From positions 1 to 64,000 of the forward strand of contig AP039707.1 in assembly GCA_051599415.1 (NCBI GenBank): a stretch of DNA of 64,000 nucleotides, read 5' to 3'. A program made the position numbers and the translations under genes. The notes beneath the pieces were generated by a model. It saw only the letters and a program-made list of their open reading frames with translations. It made no database searches and had not been told where the DNA came from. The stretch comes from Savitreella phatthalungensis (lineage: Eukaryota). Shown here piece by piece: positions 3,232 to 44,324 of the stretch. Numbering within the stretch: position 1 is the stretch's first letter; the number at the start of each line of letters is the position of its first letter.

Positions 3232-4642
3232 CGCTGACGACTTTGTGCTTCTCTTCTGCCTCTGAAGCTATTTTTGGCTCTTCATGTGATTATAGCTGAA
3301 CGCAAATAATTGAATGACTATATTTTGATGGAACTTGTGAATCACAAGTCTCTGGACGGTCGCGAGAAGCTCCATAAATACAGATAGACCAGAACAATAG
3401 GTTTGTGTGAAGAAAAAGCCCTCAATTAATTACGCGTCCTTGGCTGTCTGATGCATACATCTTACCTCTTGCTTTGCCTTGCCCTCCCTTTCATTTGTAT
3501 CCACATACCGGTATCCCCCATCATTCTAGGTCTATATAAGTCTTGTACACATATACACGTGATCTAGCACGTCAGAAGACAAGCATTCAATAGTTCTCAT
3601 AGGGACACATTTGAATTTTGGGAACAGCTGTTGGCGCTGGTATCTAACTCAATCACAGACAGGTGAAAGGTACAGTAGGTGACAGAGAATGAGACTGTGC
3701 TACAGAACTAGTCTGTATTGTCTGCTGATTCAGGTGGCTCTAAATTAGCTGCAAACGTGAGTGTCCGGCTACAAAAGAGATAATGGAGCTGATGTGGCTA
3801 GTGTGGCTGGTGTGAGTCCACGTGAACCAGAAACCTTGAACACGGGAAGGCCACAAGGCCCCGCTATTCAGTGAAATAATACACTCGAGCGACAATAAAT
3901 CAGCTGTTCCCATCTACCAATGAGATCAGCGTCTGCGCCAATCCGCCACTGAGCTCCTACAAATAAAATCAGGGTGGCTGTCATGTTCAGCGCTTATGGG
4001 AAATCTCCCTCGAACAACATTTGTGCACAAATCAAGAGAGTCTGGAGTCAGCTTTTTGGCAGTTTGTGTTACGTCAATCTAAGCCGTACTCTCCGCTCGA
4101 CATTGGTATGCGCTTGATGCAAGACTTGGCAGTGGAATTCAGACGGTCCAGTACAATCCAGTACGATCCAGCACTTGGCGGAGTGAAGCGGATGGTTGAG
4201 GAGTAATTTGAGACTCGACATGAGTACGCCGGTAACACAAGGTACCATCCGGTATTCAACGTAATAGTCGGACAATTTGAGTCCCACCTCTCCTGCTCCT
4301 CTTGTTCTCACATCAACGACATGTATGGCGTATTTTCAGCCGCGGCGCGCGCTACTGCGCCTTTCTGCTCAAACAATCCTGCCCTTGCTTGCTCAATTGG
4401 TTCCGCGTATGTCTGCTTCAGGAAACTTGCGTGCGTCTGCGCTATGGGCGTGTGCCCGATGTGTGGCTCCCACGGCTTACACCCGTTTGCTCAATAGACC
4501 ACTATGCTGCTCCCGCTCGAGGATTGATGGCTTACTTACAGTCACGCCTTGCTTGACCTCCTCAGCTTACGTCGCAAAGGGTCAAAGATCCCATATGTAG
4601 CGATCAAACAAATTCTATGTCTTCAGTGAGCGAGGGGCCTGG

Positions 4643-4662
4643 TTTGTTTACATGTAAACAAA
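4643..4662. promoter_or_regulatory. 20-bp perfect palindrome of two forkhead (GTAAACA) sites, copy 1
   Basis: TTTGTTTACATGTAAACAAA equals its own reverse complement; an identical copy lies at 7337-7356. Confidence 0.6.
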
Positions 4663-4857
4663 GCTCTGGACGGCCCTGTAGATCGCAAGGCAATTAATCG
4701 CGCAAAGCAATGATCTCTAAGGAAGATAAGAAGTCTTGTTCAGGGAATAGACTCGACCCCTTGACGAATCGCTTGTCAAGCGATCGCTCTATCGAATGAA
4801 TCAATATACCATAGTTTCGCCTGAATGAGACAGCGTATGCGACCACGAGAAGACGCA

Positions 4858-7059: not shown

Positions 7060-7217
7060 GCAGCGACCACTTTCCTTGCTGATCTCACTTTTGTTCTTCC
7101 AGTGCCAAGCTCGATGTATTCATTTTTTTGTGGTCTTGCCGATTTCAATACAGCTGCCTACCACATTGTCTCGCTTCACTCGATATCACCACCTCTCGTG
7201 TGATCTTGGTAAACTCA
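7060..7217. repeat. Dispersed direct repeat, paired with ~13820-13977
   Basis: Shared core TCGCTTCACTCGATATCACCACCTCTCGTGTGATCTTGGTA with diverged upstream similarity. Confidence 0.85.
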
Positions 7218-7336
7218 ATCCAGAGCTCGTCAGGAAGAAGGCCGACGGTCAAGTACGATATCGCGTGATCCAGAACTCGACTCGACATGAATGTAGCGGT
7301 CTAACAGTCTCTATGCGTCACTGAGCCCGTGCTTGG

Positions 7337-7356
7337 TTTGTTTACATGTAAACAAA
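7337..7356. promoter_or_regulatory. 20-bp perfect palindrome of two forkhead sites, copy 2
   Basis: Identical to 4643-4662 and about 500 bp upstream of the ATG at 7854. Confidence 0.6.
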
Positions 7357-7853
7357 TCTTCAGACGACCCCGCAAGACGCGGTAATGTAAAGCGAGTATG
7401 TGTGTGTATTAGGTTACGTAGACCTACAGTGCACACGTATGTATACAATCAAGCGAAAAAGTGATTAGTGATCAGTGGACAAGATCGTAGTTGTAAGAGG
7501 CAAGCAAGGCGACAATGATGATGGCGAGTGCAGGAAGAGCCAGAAGATTAGCGCTGCAGCAAGTAAATTGCCACGTAAGGCGATGAGCAGGCTAGCGAAT
7601 CAGGTGACGAGTAGGCCGATGGCAAACCTCGTATGTCTACATGCAAGTTACAGGCCAGGGGAGCGGCGCACTAGCGAGCCAAAATGGATGGAAGTCGCGA
7701 GCTCACAAGCGAGCGGTGCACGAGAGAGCCAAAACGACGCGGCTCACGCGTCCAGGAGCGAGAGGCATGGCATGTAAGCGAAATGAAGAATGTCGCATTT
7801 GGATGAACAATACGTTCTATAAAGGAACGATCTGTCCGCAGTAAGATAGTCAT

Positions 7854-8780
7854 ATGGACCAACAAATGAGCGACTTGCCCGCTACCAGTATGTCGGCCTC
7901 TTCAACTGGTGACGCGCAGGCGCTCTCACCAGCAGCACATGGACTGCTACACAGACGCTTGCCTACTCAACAAGAGCGCATTCGTCCGCGTGCTGGCGAC
8001 TTCTCTCTTGAGGCTGTGCCAGAGGATGCGACAGAGGAGGAGAGGAAGCGGCGCCTGGGAGCGTACCTTCGAGTGCTGCTTCTCCTCCATTTCGACTTGT
8101 CCAGGACCGTACCTGGCCACTCTGGTGATCAGCCGGTCACATACTTCAAACTGGCCATGAGCCAACTCTTTCCAGGCCTGGCAGAAGACTCGATGAGCTA
8201 CAGAAGCCTGATGCTGTACGGAACAAGTCAGGTCCGCGACTGGACTTTTGAGGTTGCCGAGTCGTACCGGCAATGGCTGGCTGACGCCGGTGAAGCCGTA
8301 AACGGTGAATGGATCGAGGCTCTCGAAGAAGAGGATGACAGCGACGATGAAAACGACGATGACGATGAAGATCTTCATCAAAGGAGCGCTCTGGACCGAG
8401 TGCTGATCCAGCGAGTGGACCAGGTCATCTTTGAGGACTTCTGGAAGTTCGCTGCGGCCTTAATCGACTTCGAAGCTTCGCTCGAGCGGCGCAATGTACG
8501 CCGCTTCTTCAAATATCATTGGATTTGTCTCGCTGGCGCTGTCTTCTTTGAGATCAAGGACCTTGTCGAGAGCGATACAAGAGACCATGAAGATTTGACG
8601 GAACAGTTCCGCAAGTTGGCGTACGACACAGGCGCTCCGAGGATCTCTATCGAGGACCTGGTGATGTACCCTGCCAAGCAGGCTGCGATCAACTCTTCTG
8701 TAGAGTTCGATCAAAGGTGCAAACGCATCGCGAGGAGGCTATTTGGCAGCCGTCGCAACCTACTTTCCCGCATTGACTAG
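7854..8780 (+). CDS. Orphan protein A (308 aa, helical, with an acidic tract)
   Basis: Intact ORF with TATAAA at 7818-7823. The duplicated fragments downstream keep recognisable peptide similarity (RRFF[KQ]YHWICLAGA.FF...EDLTEQFR.LA.DTGAP). Confidence 0.75.
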   Translation: MDQQMSDLPATSMSASSTGDAQALSPAAHGLLHRRLPTQQERIRPRAGDFSLEAVPEDATEEERKRRLGAYLRVLLLLHFDLSRTVPGHSGDQPVTYFKLAMSQLFPGLAEDSMSYRSLMLYGTSQVRDWTFEVAESYRQWLADAGEAVNGEWIEALEEEDDSDDENDDDDEDLHQRSALDRVLIQRVDQVIFEDFWKFAAALIDFEASLERRNVRRFFKYHWICLAGAVFFEIKDLVESDTRDHEDLTEQFRKLAYDTGAPRISIEDLVMYPAKQAAINSSVEFDQRCKRIARRLFGSRRNLLSRID

Positions 8781-8902: not shown

Positions 8903-9885
8903 GCCAAGATGACGAGGCTCACGCGTCCGCGAGCCAGAGGCATGGCATGGCATGGCATGAAGCGAGATGAAGAACGTCGCATATGGCCGAACACATGTGC
9001 TATTAAGGAATGATCTGTCCGCAGTAAGATAGTCATATGGACCAACAAATGAGCGACTCGCCGCTACCAGTATGTCGGCCTCTTCAAGTGACGACGCGCA
9101 GGCACGCTTACCGGCAGCACATGGATTGCTGACCCTTTGATGGAGATCGTCGTCATCTTGACAATGTCGTCATGACAGTGATGACGAAGATCTTCATCAA
9201 AGGAGCGCCTGTGTCGTGAGCCAAGATGCGGAATTGCTCCGTCAAGTCTTCGCGGTCTGCTGTCTCGCGCTCGATAATGCCGTCGAGCCCAAAGAACGCG
9301 GCGCCAGCGAGACAAATCCAATGATATTGGAAGAAGCGGCGTACATTGAGCCGCTCGAGCGAAGCCAAGGCCTGAGTCAACTTAAATCGATTTCGAGGCT
9401 TCACTTGAGCGTCACAATGTGCGCACATTCTTTCAGTACCACTGGATCCGCCTTGCTGGCGCTGCTTTCTTTGGGATCGATGGCGTTATCGAGCGCGACA
9501 CAGCAGACCGCGAAGACTTGACGGAGCAATTCCGCATCTTGGCCCACGACACAGGCGCTCCTTTGATGAAGATCTTCGTCGTCATTGTCAAGACGACATT
9601 GTCAAGATGACGACGATCTCCATCAAAGGATTATCTCCATGAAGATTCGACTAGGCCTCGATTTAAGTTGACTCAGGCCTTGGCTTCACTCGGGCGTCAC
9701 CATGTGCGCAGATTCTTTCAGTACCACTGGATCCGCCTTGCTGGCGCTGCTTTCTTTGGGATCGATGGCCTTATCGAGAGCGATGCAAAAGACCGTGAAG
9801 ATTCGACAGAACAGTTCCGCAACCTATTTTCGCGCTTCGACTAGCCAGCCACTGCGATCGACGTGCCCGTCTCCACTGTGCATGC
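8903..9885 (+). ncRNA. Candidate long hairpin RNA locus 1: rearranged non-coding duplicate of orphan gene A
   Basis: 8903-9130 copies the gene A promoter and 5' end; 9012-9058 is identical to 7829-7875 and is followed by a 1-nt frameshift. Inverted arms at 9134-9366 and 9397-9629 with a 30-nt loop. Extra sense copy at ~9682-9824. The 3' end (9840-9885) resembles 8776-8830. Transcription not shown. Confidence 0.6.
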
Positions 9886-12941: not shown

Positions 12942-13784
12942 ATGTCTCAGCGCAACGCCGGACGGGCGAATGTCATCATTGACAGTCGATCCGTCCGCGG
13001 TGCCCTTCCTGCGATGGTCCAGACGTACCTGAAAGCGACCTTGTGCATTGCCTGGCGCAACCAGGAGAATCAGAGCTCGGTCTCAGGCAGTGTCGCTCGC
13101 GAAGCTCTGCAAATTTTGGTCGGTCGCACATACGACCTACAGGACGAGAACGAACTCTATGCCTTCCAGGTGGACTTCGTGAACATTTTGCGCGGAGACA
13201 TCAACCCCGAGCGGACGCAGATGCGCAGAGGTCGCGCCGCGAGCTAGCCGACAAGACAGCGCAGCTGGAGGCGACGACAGCGCAGGTTCAGTGTCTGACA
13301 ACGCTGACCGAGAGACGTCAAGTCTAAGCAGACGCAGGCGCGCAGAGAAGCCGTCACGAGCGTGAGACCACGAAGACCCAGCTTGAGACCACAACAGCGC
13401 AGCTGCAGTCAACAACAGCGCGGCTTCGAGCTGCTCTGTCTTGTCGCCTAGCTCGTGGCGAGATTCGCATCTGCGTCCGCTTGGAGTTGACGTTGCTCGT
13501 CGAGCGCCGTTATTGACTGAACCTTTGCTGTCGTGGCCCCGAGCTGCGTTGTCTTGTCCTCCGGCCGATGATGATATTTCTCTGCGCGTCTGCGTCTGCT
13601 TGGACTTGACGTTCTTTGGCGAGTGTCGTCACAAAGTCCAGCTCGTGGCGAGACCTCTCCACATCTGCTTCTGCTTGGAGTCGACGTTCCCGAACAGAAT
13701 TGTCGCGAAGTCCACGAGAAATGCATAGGCTTCGTCCTCGTCTTGTAGATCGTATTTGCGACCGACCAAATTCTTCAGAGCTTC
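12942..13784 (+). ncRNA. Candidate hairpin locus 2: short ORF 12942-13247 followed by a mosaic inverted repeat
   Basis: 13101-13247 is the diverged reverse complement of ~13638-13784. Inner antisense modules at ~13428-13490, ~13513-13557 and ~13578-13612 pair with ~13200-13268, ~13250-13295 and ~13315-13348. Confidence 0.5.
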
Positions 13785-15559
13785 ATATGTCAGCGGCTAT
13801 GTGTGCCGCTGCTGCTTCACAGCGAGTTCTCTCTACGATTGCTGCTGCACTCTTTCGTCGGTGCTAAGCTCAATGTAGTCATCTTCTTCTGATCTTGCCG
13901 AATTCGAAACAGCTGTCTGCCGCATTGTTTCGCTTCACTCGATATCACCACCTCTCGTGTGATCTTGGTAGACTCGACGTGGATCTTCCCGGTACCGCCT
14001 GGCTTTCCTCACGGCCTCTCGTGGTTTTCTCTTGACTTCTCGCGGCTCCTCATTACTCCTCGTGACAAATTGACGGAAATCCACCTCCATATCGTGGTCT
14101 CGCTCAAAGCGCTGTCGATTCTTCTCTCGTGAACTCACTGAACTCGATATCAATCTTATTTTTTACCATCGTCATCGATTCTGGTGCGCTTGTTGTTGAT
14201 CCTGCGTCGTGCCCAGTGACCGTCCGAAGAAGGGCGTGTTGAGGGCACGATCTAACATCCTTGTGAGACCACTCGAATGCAGGTGATCATATTGCTATCA
14301 GCGACAACCGTTCAAGCGAGTGCTAATATACCTGATGACACTCTCCAGGCTTCCCTGAGCGTCACAACAGTAGCATGTTCGAGGTGCGATTGCCAGCGTA
14401 CGCTGCCTGCTGCCACTGACTGCATAAGCGTCGTGTCGCCTGCTGCTCGTCGTTTGATTGTGCTGTCGCTCGAATGCGCCAGCGGCTCCATGTCTGACTT
14501 GTGCAGCCCTTCTCCAGAGGTTGGCTAAAGGCGCAGATGCCTTGCAAGAGAGCTATTTGGCGGTAGTTCATCCTGCTCTTGTGCTTTGGTTGACTAGGCC
14601 TTGCAATCGCTCCTGGACGCGGATCAGCACATTTGGTCCACACGTTGGTTGTCACTTTACCCTTTGCCGTACACGTTGCTCACACGATCTTGCACACATT
14701 TTCACATGATGCCATGCTCATTTCTACTTGCTTCTTTCTCGACTTCATCCCCCAGATGGCTTTTCCTGCTTTATCACTGTCCTATTATTGTATTGAATGG
14801 TCTCGAAGACGATTGCACTGCAACAGTCATACGCATTGCAACTCAAAACAACATGTAAAAAGAGTTCAGCTCCAGAAGACGAACATTTCTTGTATCATTG
14901 AGCATGACGGCAGCGACGTCTCAATTTACTCATCGACAAACAGCGAGTGAAACGAGCCCAATTCGACTCGTCTAGGTCGATCGGATCTGTCCCGATTCGC
15001 ATCACAATTCTATCCATAGATCACACGCAGCATATGTGGCTAGGACTTGCTTCCAGATCGATGAACTTCTTCATGGGTAATCATGTTGATCGGACTATGG
15101 ATAGAGTCAAGATTTGAAAGTGTGAATTCAAACCACTGGATGATACTATGTCTCTGCTTTCTTTGCATGATTAAATTATGGACCGATCGACCCGGCACTA
15201 TGGTCTCTCGATAAAGGAATGCCGTGAGGGTGTATCTTAGATCAGGCTCCTTCAAATCGATGATCATCGATGCCCAGCTGAGCCATGAGCAGTCTTCTTT
15301 CTTTTGTAGAAATACACGGTGTGCAGGCCTGGGGCTCTGGACGAACCAGCGCAAGGCTCAATTTCACGGCGAGTGTATTGGCAAGGCACTAAGAGCGTGG
15401 TCCCTGTCCTGTCACGACGTCCGCACCTTCCAGTCCAGCTGTTCCTGATTCAGGTCGCGTCGCGCCATTGATACAGCGTCACGCACGCAATTCGACAAGC
15501 ATGCATTAATGTTACATTGGCGTCCCTTTGCGCCATGATCGACATTTCCGATCGCTTCG

Positions 15560-20045: not shown

Positions 20046-20117
20046 TAGCGCTAGTAGGGCTCGATCCTACGATCTCCGGGTTATGGGCCCGGCGCCATAC
20101 CACTTGGCCATAGCGCT
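20046..20117 (-). tRNA. Initiator tRNA-Met (CAU)
   Basis: AGCGCTATGGCCAAGTGGTATGGCGCCGGGCCCATAACCCGGAGATCGTAGGATCGAGCCCTACTAGCGCTA: A1-U72 pair, GGG/CCC anticodon stem, GATCG T-loop typical of eukaryotic initiator tRNAs. Confidence 0.95.
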
Positions 20118-32829: not shown

Positions 32830-33388
32830 GACGTCTACTTGAGGATCAATGTGGCTTTCCTGATGGAAAAGAGCTTGACGGTCGGCTCAATCGTTTTGTA
32901 CCGATAAGAGCTTTGGAGTCTGTTACAACGCTGCGGGCTGACAGGAAGCTTGGAGCTCGATGAGGTTGTGGAGCAGTTCTGAAGACCGGCTTGTGTCTAT
33001 GGTTGTGGGCGTCAAAGTAACATTTTTCTACACATGAGGAAAAGGTAACGAGAAGATTGCATGCATGATGAATGACCCACAATTGATTTCTATTATGATT
33101 TAAATTTAATCACGCGCACGCCCTGCAACTGTGAATTAGACTACAGAGATACACAGCTGCATCGATGCATTCATTCAATTTGGTGTGCATGATAAGTTCA
33201 AGTGTGATGTTTGTATGCTCATATCTGCCAGTCCGATCGATTTCTTGGAAGCAGGAGTCCGTTGGATGCATGAGGAGAAAAGCACAGTGTCAGAGAGAGT
33301 TTAGATAAAATCTTGGACAGATGCATCTATTTATTCGCATGTGTGAATCCTCATCAGGCTTTACAGATCGAATCCTGGTTTCATATGG

Positions 33389-33452
33389 GCTTGAGCTTGA
33401 ACTTGAGCTTGAGCTTGAGCTTTAGCTTGAGCTTGAACTTAATTCAGCTTGA
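33389..33452. repeat. (TTGAGC)n hexamer microsatellite
   Basis: Tandem ttgagc units with minor variants. Confidence 0.85.
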
Positions 33453-33537
33453 GTTTCCTGCTAATTCTGTGAGCCGGAATTCATACGCCAATTCATTGCG
33501 TGCGTGCATATGCATGTATGTCGATCGAATGAATGAA

Positions 33538-33548
33538 TGTTTGTTTAC
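33538..33548 (-). promoter_or_regulatory. FLEX-like forkhead site GTAAACAAACA
   Basis: TGTTTGTTTAC on the + strand, about 215 bp upstream of the F-box gene. Confidence 0.45.
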
Positions 33549-33763
33549 AGAAAGATCCAACGTTCATCGTGCATTGGGTCAGTGCATGGCAACCGCAAGT
33601 CTTTATCCTCCACAGCTCTTCCCCGCGAATTTCTCCGGACGGCATGATCTTCATTTCGTCACCAATTCACTCAACTGTCGGATGCACAAGTGCTTGAGAA
33701 TCACTGACTCTGGAGAACAACCTACTATAGTTCACTCTGCAAGTCGAGGACTGAACTCCGTCT

Positions 33764-34648
33764 ATGACTCTTGAAGATCTGCTCTTGATACCGACAATCT
33801 CTCGTACGCTCCTTCGCTCTCTGCCCCATGCTGACCGTCTAGCCGTGTGTAGTCTCACCCGCGCCATCAATCACGAACTCTACACGGCTGCATCAACCTG
33901 GCAGACTCTCGACATCTCCGCAGGTAGCTTCACCAGTGCGCTTCCAACGCTCAAGAGAATAGGATGGTGCCTCCGAGGCGTATGTATCGACTGCGCACAA
34001 TTCACGTTCGAGCAGTTGGACCAACTGATCGTCCTTTGTCCCAAACTCCGATACCTCGGCGCGGCTGGTTTGACATGCTATGATGACCGTGATGCATCCG
34101 ATCGGTTGCTCAAATTCGCGCGCGGGCTTCGTTGCGCTCTGCCTGAGCTCAGGCGAGTAGATCTGCTGGGCGCGCCGTTACTTCGTACGCTTGGCGACAA
34201 CGAGCTCGCCGTTATCTTGGTGAAACAGGTGCTGGCGCCGCAGGGCATCGCTACTGATCTGGAACCTTGTCCACGCGAGCACGCCTTCGAAGACAAATCC
34301 CGCAAGTGGCATCTTTGCACGCGCGGCACCAGCACATGTGCTCGATGTGGTCGAATAGAGAGATCCTGCTTTCGTTGCTCATCCGCACGCACCTGCAGGG
34401 GATGCATCAAGTACTGGTGCCACGAATGTGATCACACCATCACTCGCTCTTGTTACGAGTGTGGCTTCTCTTGTGCGACTTGTAAAGGTGGTATCATTCT
34501 CACCTGTCGCGAGTGCACGTCGAACTTCTGTCGCCTTCATTCCTCCGGTGGGAGGGTCATCGAGGGTGGTCAAGATCCAGCCGACGCTTCGGATGCACAG
34601 CTGTGCGACTGGTGCATACAGGATAGGTGTCAAGGATGGGGAGCATGA
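33764..34648 (+). CDS. F-box/LRR-like protein with a Cys-rich C-terminus
   Basis: N-terminal F-box-like segment ending in WQTLDIS, LRR-like CPKLRYL and LPELRRVDL, and many CxxC pairs. Confidence 0.75.
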   Translation: MTLEDLLLIPTISRTLLRSLPHADRLAVCSLTRAINHELYTAASTWQTLDISAGSFTSALPTLKRIGWCLRGVCIDCAQFTFEQLDQLIVLCPKLRYLGAAGLTCYDDRDASDRLLKFARGLRCALPELRRVDLLGAPLLRTLGDNELAVILVKQVLAPQGIATDLEPCPREHAFEDKSRKWHLCTRGTSTCARCGRIERSCFRCSSARTCRGCIKYWCHECDHTITRSCYECGFSCATCKGGIILTCRECTSNFCRLHSSGGRVIEGGQDPADASDAQLCDWCIQDRCQGWGA

Positions 34649-35154
34649 GTCGATTCAGAAGTGCTCACACATTTTCACAGGTATGTCGACAAGATTCCGC
34701 GAGCGGTACCGTTGCTCGTGAACCCGATCGTCTGCATTCTGACAATTTCTCCAGGTGGAGGCGTGCGTCGTATGCGAGCAGCCATGTACGTCGAGGAATA
34801 GTCCACAACAATCTTCTCGCCCACTTATATCGAACATTCGATCCTTCTCCTTTCTCAAATTCTGTTCCGCTTGCCTGCGTGACTCAAACGCATCTCATGG
34901 ATGTGGCGCAGAACAGCTCAAAGATTCGCCACGATGCACGCTTGGGCGCAGGCCAGAAGCTTTTCGCAAGCAAGACGTCGATGTCTGCTCCAAGTTGCAT
35001 AATGCGAGAGATGCGTCGTCAGCCTCGTGCGGGGTTGCGACTTTTGCATCATGCGTATGCAGACTTCTCGCACGCCCTCTCGCCTCTTCCTCCCTCCATC
35101 AAATCGTATAAGAGACGCGCCGCTACGCGGCGTGAAGTCTGGTCGTCCGCGGTA

Positions 35155-36234
35155 ATGTTTGCATACATGCTCGCAGAGCGATCTTGCCAGCTTGAGCTGA
35201 TGACGGCGTATGACATGACGTACGGTGCAGTTGCCCAGGGCGCGCATCTGATGGTGAAGTGTACGCCAGGCCCGGAATCGAACTATGGGTATCATATCAA
35301 CCTCGAAAACTACGCGATCCAGGAGATGGGTCGTGGTCACCATCCACTATACGTCAGAGAGCCAGGAGACGAGGACGTCAAGATTATCAGATACGTCGGC
35401 TGCCTCGAGGTTGGGTATCGCCTTTTCTCCGTTTCTGGCACCTGGACGGACACTGTTGGAGGCGGACGACCGCAGTGTCCGCGTGAGGAGTATTGGCTGC
35501 GGAGCACGCAGGCGCGATCGGTTACGGCCGAACGATCTGGGTCTACCGTGGTCGTGAGGAATAAGGCAAATCAAAGCTGGGCTCATGATGCTCGTGCTAT
35601 CGATCCAGTCACCGGGAAAGACGCAGCTGGCCTCATGTCGGAGCCGCAAGTCATCGCGCGCGTAGCTGTACAGTTCGAGCCGCACACTGCTATCAAGGTG
35701 GTCGCGACAGGCGAGACAAGCGACGTGGGCGTGATGCTGTGGATGCGATTCGGTGTTCCGCCTACAGTTCTGCATCCTGAGGCAGCTCTCCGCGTTCGCA
35801 ACAATTTGAAACTGAACATGATGCTCCGTGCCAAGGTCCTCTTGCTGTCAGCTCCGCCTCCGTATGAGCCGGTCGAGTCGGAAGGACCCCGAGTCGACGA
35901 TGTTGTCGTCTTCCAGCGGGACGCTCTGCTGTGTGCTGCCATGCATGTTCTTGCTCATCCGGCCATAGAGCCATTTTGGCAGCTCTACCGGAACGAGGCA
36001 GAAATTGCCTGGAGCAACAGGGGTTGCTCAAGCCTGCCATATCTGTACGCTGCTGGGATCCACTCCGGGCGCCTATTCGGACCTGCGCGAGACCCCTTCG
36101 CGGACTCTGCATTTCACAAGGAGGTCAGCTCGGCCCGGGCAACGTATGATGAGCCAAGCAGCGGACCAGCAGATTCGCTGATGCAGGGCCATCTCGAGGC
36201 ACTAGCAGAGAGAGCACGTAGTCGACGCCCGTAA
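35155..36234 (+). CDS. Orphan protein with a PPPY motif
   Basis: Long ORF, open from 34627. A TATAAG about 45 bp upstream favours the ATG at 35155. No family recognised. Confidence 0.6.
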   Translation: MFAYMLAERSCQLELMTAYDMTYGAVAQGAHLMVKCTPGPESNYGYHINLENYAIQEMGRGHHPLYVREPGDEDVKIIRYVGCLEVGYRLFSVSGTWTDTVGGGRPQCPREEYWLRSTQARSVTAERSGSTVVVRNKANQSWAHDARAIDPVTGKDAAGLMSEPQVIARVAVQFEPHTAIKVVATGETSDVGVMLWMRFGVPPTVLHPEAALRVRNNLKLNMMLRAKVLLLSAPPPYEPVESEGPRVDDVVVFQRDALLCAAMHVLAHPAIEPFWQLYRNEAEIAWSNRGCSSLPYLYAAGIHSGRLFGPARDPFADSAFHKEVSSARATYDEPSSGPADSLMQGHLEALAERARSRRP

Positions 36235-36550
36235 TCGATGTTCACGGAGAGCAGATCTAAGGAAATTACGGTCGGCGAGCTTGCTGAGGTGTGATGCGAA
36301 GCTCGCCGAGCGTGAGTAGTCAGCTCCATCAACAAACGACAGGCGACGCTCTATCCCGTGATCACGATTCTGAAACACGGCGGGACGAGTGGCACGCCGC
36401 TTGTCGAGTGGTGCGAAGTCGCCGCAGCACTAGCGCGTATAGGCGTAGACACGATCGATTGACATGTCAACAAGCAAGACCCAAGTAACACGGCCACGAT
36501 TGTCAAGAAAGTTGTAATCGACTCAGGCCATTCGATTGAACGAAAGTAAG

Positions 36551-37414
36551 CTACCGCCATGCTGCCTGCCGTTTGCGTGCCGGTGCCGGCAGCAGGGTCC
36601 ATCCGATGTCCCGCTCTTTGAGCGAGACTCGTCCGAGCCCGAGCCCGAACCAGGACGAGCTTTTCGCGATCTGTGCCTCAAGGCTGCGCTTCGCCGAATC
36701 GTGGAATTCAAGCTCGTTTAACGTTATGCGTTGAGACTGCGAGCCAGCACTAGCACCTGGGAGTCTTGGCGGTAGTGGGGTGAGGGCGGTCGACCCGCGG
36801 AGCAAGAATGTGTTCAGCAACGGCACAATCCAGCTCGGATCGGCCCTTGGAGCGATTTCAAAGGACACCGAAGTTGTACGACCGGCGTGGACGTTGCCCA
36901 CTCGTATTGATACTGCCGCGTATGTAATTTTGTTGTCGTGGTCCAGATAACATTCCCACTGCAGGGTGGCTGTTGCCAGCTTGCTGACCGTTTGTGTAAG
37001 GTTTTTCGAGCGATCGTGCTCAAGCTCAGCCTTGATCGGCATGCTCGGGGAACCGTTGATGCCGGCTGTGGCTGACGTCGATTGAGTTGAATCGACTGTC
37101 ATCGACTGCTTTTGCCTCGAGCCAGGCGTGTTGGCCTGCTCGAGACCTTTGAGTATTTGATGATCGCCGTGGCGGCGTTTCCGTCCCATGAAGAGGTCGA
37201 TTCTTACGACCTCTTTCGTGCTGGGAGTCGCTGCCTGCGGCACTTCCACCAGCAGAGTTTTTGTCGTGGCGTCCCACGACAAAGTCGTCGCCGCATTGGC
37301 CCAAGCGCTCTTCGAGTTCATTGTGAGCACTGACGTCGCCAGATAAGCTGGACTGACTCGGTTCAGCACGTTTGCTGTGACGGGGAAAGCTTGGCCATGA
37401 CTCCTCTTGGTCAT
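36551..37414 (-). CDS. Orphan protein B (287 aa, predicted beta-rich)
   Basis: Intact ORF with TATATAAG at 37565-37558. A paralogous N-terminus is preserved at 39619-39454. Confidence 0.75.
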   Translation of the reverse strand: MTKRSHGQAFPVTANVLNRVSPAYLATSVLTMNSKSAWANAATTLSWDATTKTLLVEVPQAATPSTKEVVRIDLFMGRKRRHGDHQILKGLEQANTPGSRQKQSMTVDSTQSTSATAGINGSPSMPIKAELEHDRSKNLTQTVSKLATATLQWECYLDHDNKITYAAVSIRVGNVHAGRTTSVSFEIAPRADPSWIVPLLNTFLLRGSTALTPLPPRLPGASAGSQSQRITLNELEFHDSAKRSLEAQIAKSSSWFGLGLGRVSLKERDIGWTLLPAPARKRQAAWR

Positions 37415-39079
37415 GGCGACCTGAGAATGTTATAAAGAAAGTGGCTCAATGAATGCTTTGGAAATAAGGATGCGTGGGCAAAGCCGTCAGAGAGAGAGCG
37501 AGAGAGAGTGTATGTGTGTGTGTGTGTGAGTGTGACTGAGATACGCTGACACCTGGTCTTATATAGACGTGTAGACCCCGTGCTGGCCACGATTGGACTG
37601 CTACTCGAGTGCTACTCGACTCCCACTCGATTCCAACTCGACTGTGGAACACTGGGATTAGTGGTTGATTGAACCTGGTAATTGACTAATATGAATCTGG
37701 TAATTGATTAGATTCAGAGTTTTGAGTTTTTGCTGGTAAGCTATGCTTCAGCAGCAGGCGATCACTTCGGTCTCAGCTGTGCTGCACGAAGAAGCACATC
37801 GTGGAGATTGTTTAAGCACTTGAAAGCACAAAGTGATTCCTGGACTTGTAACCTGGACAGCTTCTGGTTGGATTTGACTGGTAAAGATCTGCGGTGGCGC
37901 TTGCATTTCCAGAATTCCAACGCGGAGCAAAACCGAGTCAATCGAGGATGTGTGATACGAATGAGAGAAGATTCCAAAATTTTTATACGGGTGGCCATTA
38001 CAGTCTGGTCTCCCTCAGCTTACTTTTTCCAGTCTCGGCTATTCTTTTTCTTCATGATCTCGTACAGCTATACACAATCCGCCTAAATATAGTAACGGCT
38101 TCCAATTGGTTTATGATCCCGCGGATCCACTAAACAGGGAACACAACTCCCGTTATCAGGCAACATCGTTTGATCCTGGCTACATACGGCAGAGCACTGT
38201 AAATTAAATTCATTGGCGACCTCTGGAATGCTTCAGATATATTCATCTGCTTTCTGCCGGATTTTCCAGGAGTATTAATTGCTTCACGCGTCTCAGCACA
38301 ATAGCCTGAATTGATACATTAACGTCTAGCTGGGTGAGTCCGCAGAGATCGAGCAGGTCAAACCCAAAATGATATCATCCATTGGCGTCCATGAACTCTG
38401 GAAAATATGTAGCTGATATGCCAGGCATTTCAACGATACACCTCACACAGATCTAGAGCACGTTGAAGATACAGGGAAGCATGAGTAGCGTGACAGAATA
38501 CACTCTAGCCTGTCAAAGACAGTGCATAGTCTCGAGGTCATAACAGAATGTATGCATGGTGAAGCTCTCAGTACTACTGGACTGCAGCTGCGCAGGCACT
38601 GAATGTAGCCATACTGCCTCGATCGTTCTATGGCATGTCGTGTAGTGCCTGACTTCGTTCGCCTGCGATCACATGCTATCAGTCAGTCGCGAGCTGAAAT
38701 TGACCTTCTCACCTATCCTGATAATCTCAATGCATAACAGTCCACACTGCATCAAATCGGCAATCTCCTCAGAGTCAATTACTCTGACTGGAATCACTGC
38801 ACGTGTGTCAGATGAGTCTCACACCGATCTACACGTCCCATACATGTACGTGCGTATATGGATTGATTCAATATACTCATACGTACTGCCAGCCGCTCAC
38901 ATACTGCACGTGACTTCCCAGCTGGTCACATTCTCAGGATAGCCCTGACGAAGCAGCTGCCTCATGAGCCAGCAGACGGGGCACACCTTTTAACATTCTT
39001 CATTCTCGAGTTGCCGCATGACAACGAGCACGACGCGCAGTATAGCAAGAGCACAATGACTAGCCCGGCGATCAGTTAA

Positions 39080-39709
39080 CTCTCTCTCTCTTCCGACTCT
39101 GCTCACGCATCCTTATTCTCAAGGCATTCATTGAGCTCCACTTTCTTCATTCTCAGAAACATCATGACCACAAGAAGCCACGCCAAAGCGTTCCCTCCGG
39201 TGCCGAACGTGCTGACGAGGTCAGGACTGATGTTGATGTTGCTAAGTTCACACACACACATTCTCTCTCTATCTCTCTTCCGACTCTGCCACGCATCTTT
39301 ATTCAAGGCATTCATTGAGCTCGAACTTTCTTCATTCCGTTCTCAGGTCATCATGACCAAAAGGACTCACGACCAGACTTTCCTCCACACCAAACGTGCT
39401 GACGAAGGTCTATCCAGCCGACTTAGCTACGTCGGTCCTTACAATGTGCTCGACAAGCAGCGTGCCTGTCGTTGGATCCCAGTAGAGAGTGCTGGAATCG
39501 TGGTGGAACGCGCTCATCGAGCGCATTGTAAGTACTGTTGTCGCCAGATTGGCTGGACTGACCCTCGTCAGCACGTTTGGTGCGACGGAGAAAGCTTGGC
39601 AGTGAGTCCTTTTGGTCATGATGACCTGAGAACGGAATGAAGAAAATTCGAGCTCAACGATGCCTTGAATAAAGATGCGTGGCAGAGTCGGAAGAGAGAT
39701 AGAGAGAGA

Positions 39710-39781
<72 letters not shown>

Positions 39782-40080
39782 CTAGGATACGCTGACGTCT
39801 GGTCTTATGTAGACGTGTAGACGCCGTAATCGACACTTCTCGACTCCAACACGACCGTAGTCATGTGATCTGGTGACTGAGCCACTGTGCTCGTAAGTCA
39901 TGCTGCTGCGGCAGGTGATCAGTGCAAGTCGTGCAGGCATGATCAAATGGAGAACTGTGAAAGCACTGGCGGCATAATTGAAGCGACGGCTAATGTCCTC
40001 GAGCTGTAACAAGCCCAGGTCGTCTGACTTGGAATCAAGAGTTGATCCTGATTAATAGAGATCTGCAGTAGTGGCGGCAG
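39080..40080 (-). ncRNA. Candidate long hairpin RNA locus 3: truncated duplicate of orphan gene B with fold-back
   Basis: ~39620-40080 resembles the gene B upstream region (~37415-37900). Inverted arms at 39249-39453 and 39517-39722 with a 63-nt loop. A second antisense copy lies at ~39080-39222. Confidence 0.6.
39711..39780. repeat. (TG)35 microsatellite
   Basis: Pure dinucleotide run; the gene B leader has a shorter homologous tract at ~37508-37534. Confidence 0.95.
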
Positions 40081-41440
40081 TTTGGAAGTGGATCGTGGCT
40101 CTCGATAAGTTCGCCTGGATGATGACCTCGTATTGCAACGTGGTCAAGCTTGAAACCGAGTATGGACTCTGACGTCAAGGTGGAAATCAAATCAAATCAA
40201 AAGGATCAGCCCTCAACGGCGCAAGCAGATGAGCCATACACTCGCTACTGGTCAAACGGAAGAGTATTCAGCGATGGCAAAGCATGTGTGCGTGAGAAGG
40301 CTGCAGTGGCTGTGTGCATGACTGATACACAATGGAATTCCCAGAAGAGGACCAAGCACATACGCGCTAGGCTCAGTCGTAGGTCGACCTGGTTTCTACC
40401 ACAATACAAATCTATGCCTACGTGTTGATCTGCTCGTGCGAATGCACCCGCATCTATTGCTATACACCTATTAGGGCGCGGCGGAGATGTATGGCGCTTG
40501 TTGAGTGAAGTGTTGTAACGACCCTGCATGAAGCGTGACCTTTGTATGAACGTGAGAGGGATAAATGCGCGGGATGATCATAGGTGACAATCCCGAGCAG
40601 CTATAGATGGACAGTAGAGAAGTCAAGCTTATCGTGTATCCATTTGGGCGAATCAGAAGGACAAGTAGCTTGATCATTACTTCAGCTTTGACGTCACTGC
40701 TCATTGAATTGCGTCGAGCGCGAGATCAGGTGGGGAAGGACAGATTCACCTTAGATCGTCCTATGAATCGAAGTCCAGGCTTGATTGTCGGGCAGAGGGC
40801 ACTGAATCGTGACGCTGCACCGCATAGCACTGGGCAGATCGTTATGCAACCCAGGAGGCCATTCGTCTGCGACGTGTGTCGAGATGCAAACACCCGAGCA
40901 TAGACAACGCCGACGCCGTGCGTCACGATGACATAAGGACCATCGATCTCGGCTTCAATCGGAGCTTCACTTAGGGCGTCAGTGACCGCACCGGCTGACT
41001 GTGGACTTGTTCTCTTCACTCAGTCACATGCAGATCCACGATCATCTTGCAATTGTTCGACGTGTAGCTCATCTTGACGCTGGTGAAGATGAGAAGCTTT
41101 GAATTTTCCATCAAGATAGTGCATACTTGATTCTAATATCGATAATAAACTGTATGTGGCAATCAGTTAAATTTCAATGAGGTCGGTCTTGCGGGGTCAC
41201 GTGCCGAAAATTCCGGCTTGAGATTGACCACAGTCAACAATTCGAATTTTGATCAAAACTCCAAATGCATGTTCGCTAGATTTGTTGGATGCAGCGATCC
41301 ATAAATATTGATGATCGAGGCCGCACTTGGTGGTATTGAAACAATTGGCCATTGAAAGCGACACGTACGTCAAAAGTGATATAGAGCTAAGCTAGCTAGG
41401 TGCAAAGGGAAACAAGGAGAGTGAGAATTCGGACAGCAGT

Positions 41441-41494
41441 AAGCAAAAAGCAAAAAGCAAAGAACAGAAAGCAGAAAGCAGAAAGCAGAAAGCA
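41441..41494. repeat. Heptamer repeat (GCAAAAA/GCAGAAA)n upstream of PMR1
   Basis: Tandem 7-mers. Confidence 0.8.
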
Positions 41495-41726
41495 GGTCAA
41501 CGTCCATTTACCCATCGAATACACGTGATCCATTCGCGTGTACAGCGTACGCATATGCAGTACGTACATACTGATATATTTTATCCCATATATTGAACTC
41601 ATACACATCACACCAGTTGAAACGCGTATAGGCTTAAAAAGCCGACGGCGAGACTACAAAGGGACCATCCCCTTTCGACCTCCTCTGTGCTGAGAAGTTT
41701 GAAAGTTCTCTGAGTTCCTGCTCGTC

Positions 41727-44324
41727 ATGTCAACGCCTGCATGCCACTTCTCACAGAGAACAGCTCAAGAGACAGCGCATGAGTTGCATACGGATGTCGA
41801 CCAGGGTCTATCGCAGGAGGATGCACGATTCAAGCTGGCGAACCATGGACCGAACGAGCTCGAGGCAGAAGACGAGGAGAACATGCTGGTCAAGTACATC
41901 AAAGGCTTCGTCGAGCAGCCTCTAATTCTCCTCCTGCTCGGATCTGCCGGAGTCTCCCTTCTTCTTGGCAATGTAGACGACGCAATCTCCATCTTTCTCG
42001 CCCTGGTCATCGTCGTTACTGTCGGGTTCGTGCAGGAGTATAGATCAGAGAAATCACTTGCCGCCCTCAATCGGCTCGTTCCACACTACTGCTCGCTCGT
42101 ACGCGAGGGCAAGACATCTCATGTGCTCGCCAATGCACTCGTCCCGGGCGATATCGTTGTCTTCTCTGTCGGAGATCGTATTCCAGCAGACGTTCGTCTC
42201 ATCAAGGCAAGCGAGCTACAGGTTGACGAAAGTTCTCTCACTGGCGAAGCAGAACCACGGCACAAGTCACTCGATAAGCTCGACCGAGCTGTAGGCGTGT
42301 CTGAACGCGACAACACAGCTTACATGGGCACGCTTGTCACGCACGGCAATGGCCGAGGTATCGTCGTCGGTACCGCCACCGAGTCGGAGTTTGGCGCCAT
42401 CTGGGCGTCCATGCAAAATGCAGACAAACCCCGGACACCCCTCCAGCAGGCCATGGACAAGCTTGGCAGCCAGCTGTCGTACGTCAGCTTTGCACTCATT
42501 GGCTGCATCATCCTCCTCGGTATCATCCAGGGTCGATCTTGGCTCGAGATGTTCACGATCGGTGTCTCGCTCGCTGTCGCTGCGATTCCCGAGGGATTGC
42601 CAATCATCGTTACCGTGACGCTTGCGCTCGGCGTTTTGCGTATGGCCGATAGAAAGGCGATCGTGCGTCGATTGCCATCGGTCGAGACACTCGGCAGTGT
42701 CAATGTCATCTGTTCGGACAAGACCGGTACACTAACGATGAACCACATGACTGTCACAAAGTTCTGGGCCGCACGGACGAGCAAGTACACGACATCGCCC
42801 TTCCACGCAGCTGCCGCCTCGGACATCTCCGAGCTCCTCGAGGTAGGCAATTTGTGCAACGACGCTGTCATCAAGGATGGCAAGGTTGTCGGCCAGGCTA
42901 CCGATGTCGCCCTGATCGAAGTACTTTCCAGCTTCAATCGTTCAGATGAGCGCGAGAGCAGACACAAAATTTCAGAAGTCCCTTTCTCCTCCGATCGGAA
43001 GTACATGTCGACCACATACAAGGGTGGAGTTTACATGAAGGGCGCACTCGAGGAAGTCTTGAAACGAAGTTCCAACGCAGATGAGGTGGATAACGCAGCC
43101 CATGAAGCCTCTCGGAAGCTCTCAGACGAAGGGCTGCGTGTGATCGCGCTTGCTTCTGGCGAGTCCGACGATGCACTCGTGTTCCGTGGACTTGTCGGCT
43201 GCCATGATCCGCCCCGGAAGGGAGTCGAGCGATCCATCAGACGGCTCAACAAGAGCGGCGTCAAGGTGGTCATGATTACGGGCGACTCCGCTGCCACGGC
43301 AGCCGCCATTGCACGATCCCTCGAAATTCTTCGCACACGTGAGCAGGTCCTGCTGGGCTCAGACGTGGAAAAGATGGATGAGCGTCAGCTGGCAGACCAG
43401 CTCGACACGGTGTCTGTGTTTGCGAGGACAACACCGAAGCACAAGATGAAGATTGTTCGGGCGTTCCAGCGGCGTGGTGACGTGGTAGCAATGACCGGTG
43501 ACGGCGTCAACGACGCACCTGCTCTGAAGATCGCAGACATCGGCGTGGCGATGGGCAAGGACGGCACAGATGTGGCAAAGGAAGCTGCAGATATGATCCT
43601 GACGGACGACGACTTCTCCACCATCCTTCATGCGATCGAGGAAGGCAAGGGCATCTTCGCCAACATCCAATGTTTCCTGGCATTCCAGCTGTCGACCTCA
43701 CTTGCAGCGTTATCACTGATTGCGCTCGCGACCATCTTCGGGTTCGAGAACCCGCTGAACGCGATGCAGATCTTGTGGATCAACATCCTCATGGACGGTC
43801 CGCCGGCGCAGTCGCTCGGTGTCGAGAAGGTCGATCCTGCGGTCATGTCAGCACCTCCGCGTGACAAGGACTCCCCCGTGCTGACGTCTGCCATCATCCG
43901 ACGTGTGTGCGTCCAGGCTGGCGTGATTGTGGCTGGCGTGATGGCCGTCTTCTACTACGAGCTCACTGCAGACGGGCTCGTCAACCGTCGCGACACCACC
44001 ATGACCTTCACCTGCTTCGTCCTCTTCGACATGTTCAACGCGCTCACGTGCAGGTCCGCCGACAAGAGTGTGGCTGAGTCTGGCGTCTTCACAAACAAGG
44101 TCTTCAACGCCGCCGTCGGCTTCTCCTTGCTCGGTCAGCTCGCCGTCATCTACGTCCCTTTCCTACAGGAGATCTTCCAGACAGAGGCTCTCGCCATCTC
44201 CGACATCATCCTCCTCACAGCCATCGCCTCCCTCGTCCTCATCGTCGACGAGACTCGAAAATACATGCGACGCAAGGGAGCGTCCTCCGCCATGCTCCTC
44301 AAACGATACAACCTTCGGGTATGA
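41727..44324 (+). CDS. PMR1: Golgi Ca2+/Mn2+ P-type ATPase (SPCA)
   Basis: [84 protein letters not shown]. Confidence 0.97.

Follow-up and report, generated by a model that had tools for sequence, protein, structure and literature searches.

Young plant microRNA genes are said, following Allen et al. in 2004, to arise from inverted duplication of their target genes. The hpRNA loci of Drosophila (among them hp-CG4068, Nmy/Tmy and Dsim-hp58) likewise derive from their targets, and some of them are located one gene away from the progenitor (PMC10317233, PMC10292708). These loci are defined by Dicer-2-dependent siRNAs that are fully complementary to a target that becomes de-repressed in mutants, their parents are young, fast-evolving genes, and they have been called “analogous to plant miRNAs” (PMC10317233). 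In fission yeast and other fungi, an inverted repeat transcribed in an RNAi-competent background gives rise to siRNAs that can act on homologous loci, as described for engineered, perfectly matched hairpins (PMC8253403, PMC3733888). Palindromes are also described as products of breaks or stalled replication forks (PMC7467729, PMC3907307, PMC4689423): fold-back inversions that proceed via single-stranded hairpins are documented in yeast (PMC7467729), and inverted triplications have been described there as well (PMC4689423). Our searches of the literature retrieved no description of Taphrina or Protomyces hairpin loci derived from neighbouring genes, or of fungal hairpins derived from orphan genes.

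The locus described here belongs to a fungus near Taphrina and was found in a stretch of 64,000 nucleotides (64 kb; the window), which is part of a contig of 262,765 bp. At positions 39080-39854 of the window, three fragments corresponding to the 5′ end of a single gene, gene B, are clustered; we refer to them as R, L and T. Copy R has the same orientation as gene B and is inverted relative to L and T. The architecture is like that of the Drosophila loci, but those are animal loci defined by their siRNAs, whereas the present one belongs to a fungus and contains no 21-mer with fewer than two mismatches to gene B. As in young plant miRNA genes, homology between arm and parent extends well past the length of any small RNA, and the stem is imperfect and decaying; in the plant model, however, one or more segments of small-RNA size retain near-complementarity to the target, and here none is left, the longest exact match being 14 nt. 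The fungal hairpins share the inverted repeat with our locus but are engineered and perfectly matched, while the repeat considered here is natural and 74-82% identical to its presumed target. With the products of fold-back inversion and palindrome formation, the locus has in common adjacent inverted copies, a short spacer that continues one arm, low-complexity breakpoints and a third copy. The published fold-back events, on the other hand, are recent and often large or terminal, whereas the locus is ~0.8 kb long, interstitial, apparently old and partly re-homogenised. In short, of the properties expected of an hpRNA gene, the long inverted repeat is present, and complementarity of small-RNA length to gene B or to the rest of the window is absent; two properties expected of a fold-back duplication, adjacent inverted copies with a short spacer and continuation of one arm into that spacer, are present; and dispersed copies with target-site duplications, as expected of Foldback or MITE elements, are absent from the window.

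The parent, gene B (36551-37414, minus strand), is an ORF of 287 codons that belongs to no Pfam family and has no homologue. None of the other five frames reaches its codon score (0.083 bits/codon), and its GC3 (0.64) is like that of the housekeeping genes of the window. When relatives were sought in a clustered collection of 5.8 billion proteins (among proteins of 157-503 aa) and among 1.84 billion protein representatives of all lengths, gene B itself was the sole match in each case. The ESM Atlas returned unnamed clusters only, with recognition under the useful level; Atlas rows at 0.85-0.87 that would have made the product pore-forming-toxin-like were taken as chance and this assignment was rejected. 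The mean pLDDT of a single-sequence AlphaFold2 model was 35.7. The database model of the gene starts at M32 (256 aa). Since the 31 codons upstream of that position are conserved at the protein level in copy R, with pN < pS, we favour the upstream ATG of the 287-codon ORF over the M32 start. The leader and promoter region (37415-37608, minus strand) contains the sequence TATATAAG at 37558-37565, an interrupted short (CA) run at ~37506-37536 and, after it, a CT-rich leader.

Copy R in full occupies 39449-39854 and comprises a copy of the promoter, a (CA)35 tract, the leader and codons 1-57. Its part that forms the right arm and the loop (39449-39722, minus strand) contains the leader, an ATG at 39619 and codons 1-57 homologous to those of gene B. 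The paralogous N-terminus that had been proposed in the preliminary description is indeed encoded here: it reads MTKRTHCQAF... and belongs to a 69-codon ORF (39619-39410, minus strand) that ends within the antisense of L. In tblastn, residues 1-57 of gene B align with 39619-39449 at 66.7% identity (E 3.5e-17), and in blastn the gene B 5′ region (37305-37534) aligns with 39510-39738 at 79.4% identity over 233 nt. Over the 57 codons, pS is 0.477 and pN is 0.208; the ratio of 0.44 indicates that the duplicated piece evolved as coding sequence for some time. As for the remainder of the truncated paralogue, a tblastn search of the window with gene B retrieved three 5′ fragments only.

Upstream of the R leader lies a perfect (TG)35 microsatellite (39711-39780), which is (CA)35 on the minus strand and for which Tandem Repeats Finder reports 35.0 copies with 100% matches. 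It would be placed at the predicted 5′ end of an R transcript, and its last 6 units alone pair with L. In gene B the corresponding tract (37506-37536) is interrupted and short, against 35 perfect units in R, and the perfect, expanded state of the latter points to recent activity of the tract there. The promoter copy proper (39781-39854, minus strand) is 80-90% identical to the region upstream of gene B, with matches between 37540-37581 and 39786-39827 (90%, blastn) and between 37508-37608 and 39754-39854 (80%) that amount to ~75 bp of upstream sequence in R. An upstream region copied together with its TATA box had been reported for this arm; the upstream copy is there, but the TATA box is not intact, TATATAAG of gene B (37558-37565, minus strand) being replaced by TACATAAG in R (39804-39811).

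Copy L, which forms the left arm (39249-39461, plus strand), consists of (CA)6, the leader, an ATG at 39353 and codons 1-37, and is inverted with respect to gene B. A 2-nt deletion after codon ~10 shifts its frame, and a 1-nt indel is present in the leader; in tblastn, the match to gene B is split between two frames, with residues 1-10 at 39353-39382 and residues 13-37 at 39387-39461. Copy T (39080-39222, plus strand), also inverted with respect to gene B, runs from a (CT)6 run through the leader to codon 19, with the ATG at 39164; residues 1-19 of gene B correspond to 39164-39220 at 63% identity in tblastn. A further diverged antisense copy had been noted earlier at 39222-39080, and blastn bears this out, with identities of 79.3% to L, 77.9% to R and 76.5% to gene B. 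Both L and T are devoid of a promoter copy. The copies have their boundaries in microsatellites; that of L is in (CA)n and that of T in (CT)n.

L and R form an inverted repeat with arms at 39249-39458 and 39512-39722 (210 nt) and a spacer of 53 nt, where the preliminary description gave arms of ~205 bp and a 63-nt loop. A repeat search resolves the arms into collinear blocks that are, from the outer to the inner end, 63 nt (100% complementary), 71 nt (92%) and 78 nt (77%) long; about half of the perfect 63-nt block is low-complexity sequence made of CA and CT runs. Taken as one blastn match, the stem is 82.7% identical over 481 nt (E 1e-132), and the two arms differ by 21 substitutions, 15 of which are transitions, and by 3 indel columns. 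The stem is closed as had been described, with (CA)6 at 39249-39260 pairing with the end of the perfect (TG)35 at 39711-39780. A loop at 39454-39516 had been noted too, and an unpaired stretch is present (39462-39511, minus strand), but it is not a separate foreign sequence: it contains codons ~37-52 of copy R, which have no counterpart in L, and R remains homologous to gene B as far as 39449. The spacer between the arms is thus the continuation of the R arm, gene B residues 1-57 aligning with 39619-39449 straight across the loop. The 13 nt at 39449-39461 lie inside both the L alignment (which extends to 39461) and the R alignment (which extends to 39449), so the inversion junction sits in a stretch that can be read as either copy, and divergence of ~20% blurs its original position.

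RNA of the interval 39080-39800 was folded in silico for both strands. For the minus strand, the folding energy was -429.1 kcal/mol compared to -214 ± 5.8 kcal/mol for 20 shuffled sequences (z -37), and for the plus strand it was -414.6 kcal/mol compared to -232 kcal/mol, again for 20 shuffles (z -27). On neither strand did any of the 20 shuffles fold as well as the real RNA. Chance origin of the long L/R duplex is excluded.

The four copies were compared in a MAFFT alignment in which the leader and codons 1-31 were scored separately. Gene B and R are 78.7% identical in the leader and 81.7% identical in codons 1-31; for gene B and L, the corresponding values are 81.1% and 73.6%. R and L, in contrast, are 97.8% identical in the leader (90/92) and 79.1% identical in the codons (72/91), a difference that is highly unlikely to be accidental (Fisher p = 4.7e-5). 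Judged by these values, the four copies are of old date and have diverged to about the same extent, and near-identity is confined to the outer palindrome. The contrast between leader and coding part of R and L cannot arise from a single duplication age but can be explained by a conversion tract; the pattern suggests an old fold-back duplication combined with recent gene conversion from arm to arm. Since R and L split, the branch leading to R would have accumulated ~6% change and that leading to L ~14%, these estimates being drawn from the three distances in the coding part and from few sites. The frameshift in L and the mutated TATA box of R indicate that parts of the locus are decaying. The transition mismatches of the stem would appear as 10 G:U pairs in the minus-strand RNA and as 5 in the plus-strand RNA, and the asymmetry of G:U versus A:C (10 versus 5 among 15 transitions) is not significant as a sign of selection for RNA pairing (binomial p = 0.30).

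As had been proposed before, the 5′ leader and initial codons of gene B are the source of the hairpin, and the promoter copy occupies a position from which it could drive a fold-back RNA. The preliminary description went further and had the hairpin target gene B. To this part the sequence lends no support. All 21-mers of R (39447-39710), L (39261-39461) and T (39080-39222) were compared, on both strands and with CA/TG runs excluded, with the gene B transcript (36551-37505). Matches with 0 or 1 mismatch were not found for any of the 244 21-mers of R, the 181 of L or the 123 of T (0/548 altogether), and matches with 2 mismatches numbered 5, 1 and 1, respectively. In a raw scan over 36400-37700, the sole 21-mers outside microsatellites that matched with 1 mismatch were located in the promoter copy (39799-39822), i.e., upstream of any expected transcript. 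With the microsatellite excluded, exact matches of the locus to other parts of the 64-kb window reach 14 nt at most, and no intact gene within the window has a near-perfect match of 21 nt. Identity to gene B had been called moderate, and at 74-82% it is. It had also been suggested that distinct arm variants could cover several paralogues or that the main target lies elsewhere; a protein-level search of two protein libraries revealed no paralogue of gene B. The sister hairpin (9134-9629), compared with its own parent, gene A, served as positive control and gave exact runs of 47, 28, 27, 23 and 23 nt. Since the sister hairpin does match its parent, the 21-mer complementarity test is able to come out positive. 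Taken together, targeting is unsupported by complementarity, and it appears unlikely that the locus is a convincing trans-silencer of gene B today.

The sister locus (“hairpin locus 1”, 8903-9881) lies next to its parent, gene A (7854-8780, plus strand), which is also an orphan. The region upstream of gene A and the first ~95 nt of its coding sequence have been copied (7728-7948 versus 8903-9130, 84% identity, with a 47-nt exact run). An inverted repeat (9134-9366 and 9397-9629, 86% over 497 nt) that stems from codons ~204-266 of gene A follows, and after it come a third copy (9658-9821) and then the 3′ end of gene A. The plus-strand RNA of this locus folds with -516.6 kcal/mol (z -30). Perfect antisense matches to gene A measure 28 and 23 nt, and among the 21-mers of the left arm, 8/213 are perfectly antisense to gene A and 38/213 are so with one mismatch. 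Because of the perfect 23-28-nt antisense matches to its parent, the sister locus is, as far as complementarity goes, a better hairpin-RNA candidate than the locus derived from gene B. There is a third palindrome at 13101-13784, which is much weaker, its identity being 64% over 736 nt and 79-85% in sub-blocks; no parent was found for it elsewhere in the window, where its longest exact match is 14 nt.

The genomic setting can be summarized as follows. A PMR1-type Ca-ATPase gene is located at 41727-44324, and the best named relatives of its product are from Taphrina deformans (70% identity) and Protomyces lactucae-debilis (69%), from which we infer that the organism is a fungus near Taphrinales. 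The long ORFs of the window run without intron interruption. T. deformans has been reported to have Argonaute and Dicer (PMC4159005), and, in the account of its genome, TTAGGG telomeres, a GC content of 49.5% and no RIP (PMC3648899). The window starts with CCCTAA telomere repeats at ~56-170 that degenerate beyond; over 44-276, the CCCTAA repeats grade inwards into a regular variant array, (ACCCTC ACCCTC ACCCTG)n. Dispersed short direct repeats are found in the subtelomeric 15 kb, one pair at 7102-7216 and 13861-13975 (87% over 115 nt) and a second at 4595-4676 and 7291-7370 (78% over 82 nt), the latter with the palindromic core GTTTACATGTAAAC. The hairpin derived from gene B lies outside the subtelomere proper: Pfam matches are present in 14 ORFs of the window, and 9 of these are between 16 and 33 kb. 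It is part of an island of ~8 kb (33.7-41.7 kb) that consists of ORFs without a Pfam match (33764-34648 and 34636-36234), gene B and a gene-poor stretch with a GC content of 0.485-0.487, compared to 0.53-0.58 in neighbouring windows. The two ORFs at 33764-36234 (294 and 532 aa, no Pfam family) overlap by 13 nt in different frames; a single gene interrupted by a frameshift or by a short intron may underlie both. With gene B, the two ORFs make up a no-family island between an aminotransferase gene and PMR1. A search for RNA families over 33000-42000 gave 3 matches with E <= 1, all far under the gathering score, and two of them were SCARNA7 rows on TG/CA repeats. No tRNA gene is close to the locus, the sole one of the window being at 20046-20117. 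Metagenome scans with two patterns of the conserved leader motif, one fitting gene B, T and L and the other fitting R, yielded 0 hits each.

We consider it reasonably probable, from the sequence comparisons above, that the locus is a set of three truncated copies of the gene B 5′ end, i.e., a decaying pseudogene palindrome with at most local effects, and not a tuned silencer. It probably originated by fold-back (template-switch) duplication. A broken or stalled 3′ end would have found a short stretch of inverted homology, folded back on it and used its own strand as template, the breakpoints of this step falling in microsatellites, and a further tandem copy (T) would have been added afterwards. 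Long neutral decay would then account for the frameshift of L, the change in the TATA box of R and the 20-25% divergence from the gene and between the copies, and the outer ~134 bp of the arms would later have been homogenised to 92-100% via gene conversion between them. The locus could still be a source of dsRNA: if the weakened promoter copy fires, transcription of the minus strand would begin within or close to (CA)35, and the RNA would form a stem of ~200 bp with a nearly perfect basal part of 134 bp. By analogy with T. deformans, for which both Dicer and Argonaute are reported, such an RNA could plausibly be cut by Dicer. Small RNAs produced in this way would fit the locus itself perfectly and gene B with at least 2 mismatches per 21 nt, which makes slicing or siRNA-guided trans-silencing of gene B improbable at present; the hairpin would act locally (self-silencing) or not at all. 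Three points speak against a mere relic. The promoter has been retained on exactly the arm from which a sense-loop-antisense RNA would be made, as expected of a working hairpin-RNA gene; the same design is found at 8903-9881, and two such loci in 64 kb hint at more than accident; and the near-identity of the basal 134 bp could be due to selection for a Dicer-competent stem and not to conversion.

Other origins of the palindrome fare poorly. Palindromic artefacts, such as chimeric fold-back reads, do occur in long-read assemblies, but the arms of an artefact would be essentially perfect, whereas the alignment of the two arms of the locus contains 24 differing columns, 21 with substitutions and 3 with indels; in addition, the locus is internal to the window and has a third, diverged copy next to it, and we give an assembly error next to no credence. 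It is only slightly easier to believe in a Foldback- or MITE-like transposable element whose terminal inverted repeats resemble the 5′ end of gene B by chance. The identity of the arms, which peaks at the outer ends and falls toward the centre, is what terminal inverted repeats would look like. However, the homology of R to gene B extends past the repeat, both into the promoter (39786-39854) and into codons 38-57, and the copies retain a coding signature (pN/pS 0.44). Moreover, no target-site duplication could be seen by eye at the flanks, blastn self-comparison of the 64-kb window revealed no further copy, the leader motif being found only at gene B, T, L and R, and no transposase or other Pfam domain was detected at E <= 0.1 in the 13 ORFs of 33.7-41.6 kb. 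A very low probability is therefore assigned to this origin.

The remaining alternatives concern function. The locus could be a trans-acting hairpin-RNA gene, the siRNAs of which, made by Dicer and loaded on Argonaute, would silence gene B or unseen paralogues through the leader and first codons. The promoter copy followed by sense, loop and antisense in one orientation, the strong stem predicted on both strands (z -37 and -27), the RNAi proteins reported in T. deformans, the nearest named relative (PMC4159005), the origin of Drosophila hpRNAs from, and sometimes beside, their targets (PMC10317233) and the perfect 23-28-nt antisense matches of the sister locus to gene A would all fit such a gene. 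Yet not one of 548 21-mers matches gene B with 1 mismatch or less, the longest exact match is 14 nt, the two protein libraries contain no paralogue of gene B, the TATA box of R is mutated, and G:U pairs show no bias that would betray selection for RNA pairing (p = 0.30), which leaves trans-silencing improbable. A somewhat better case, although still an unlikely one, can be made for a candidate source of double-stranded RNA acting in cis, either through local RNAi, as in the nucleation of heterochromatin in fission yeast, or through read-through toward gene B; gene B and the orphan island would then be dampened without any need for sequence identity. The basal 134 bp of the stem are 92-100% paired, so siRNAs made from them would fit the locus perfectly, and R shares its strand with gene B and lies upstream of it, at a distance of 1.5 kb. 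The gene-poor, low-GC stretch beside ORFs without a Pfam family would be a suitable setting, and RNAi genes are reported in Taphrina (PMC4159005). Against this, protein-coding genes of S. pombe are described, in the work cited, as refractory to siRNA-directed heterochromatin (PMC8253403).

A bolder view would unite the two loci. They may be members of a small hairpin-RNA gene family of natural origin in an early-diverging ascomycete close to Taphrina and Protomyces, each member made by duplicating an adjacent lineage-specific orphan gene with its promoter and folding it back. The sister locus, with its perfect 23-28-nt matches to the parent, would then be young; the locus derived from gene B would be old, with the base of its stem kept Dicer-competent, and would either silence gene B in cis or a target elsewhere, or be the fossil of a resolved conflict. 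Such a family would be a fungal counterpart of the arms race between hpRNAs and young selfish genes in Drosophila. We regard this view as doubtful, on a par with trans-silencing of gene B.

As the evidence stands, the decaying pseudogene palindrome that we favour is of a more ordinary kind, an example of palindrome formation at microsatellites, and it carries the caution that an inverted copy of a gene does not by itself make a silencer of that gene. Transcription and dicing of the locus, if they occur, would make it a naturally occurring hairpin-RNA gene of the Taphrina lineage, and, with the younger sister locus at 8903-9881, birth and decay of such genes would be seen side by side. What gives the finding its significance is mainly that the design recurs at 8903-9881, with a hairpin that does have the complementarity to its parent, and the chance that an RNAi-competent relative of Taphrina uses such loci.
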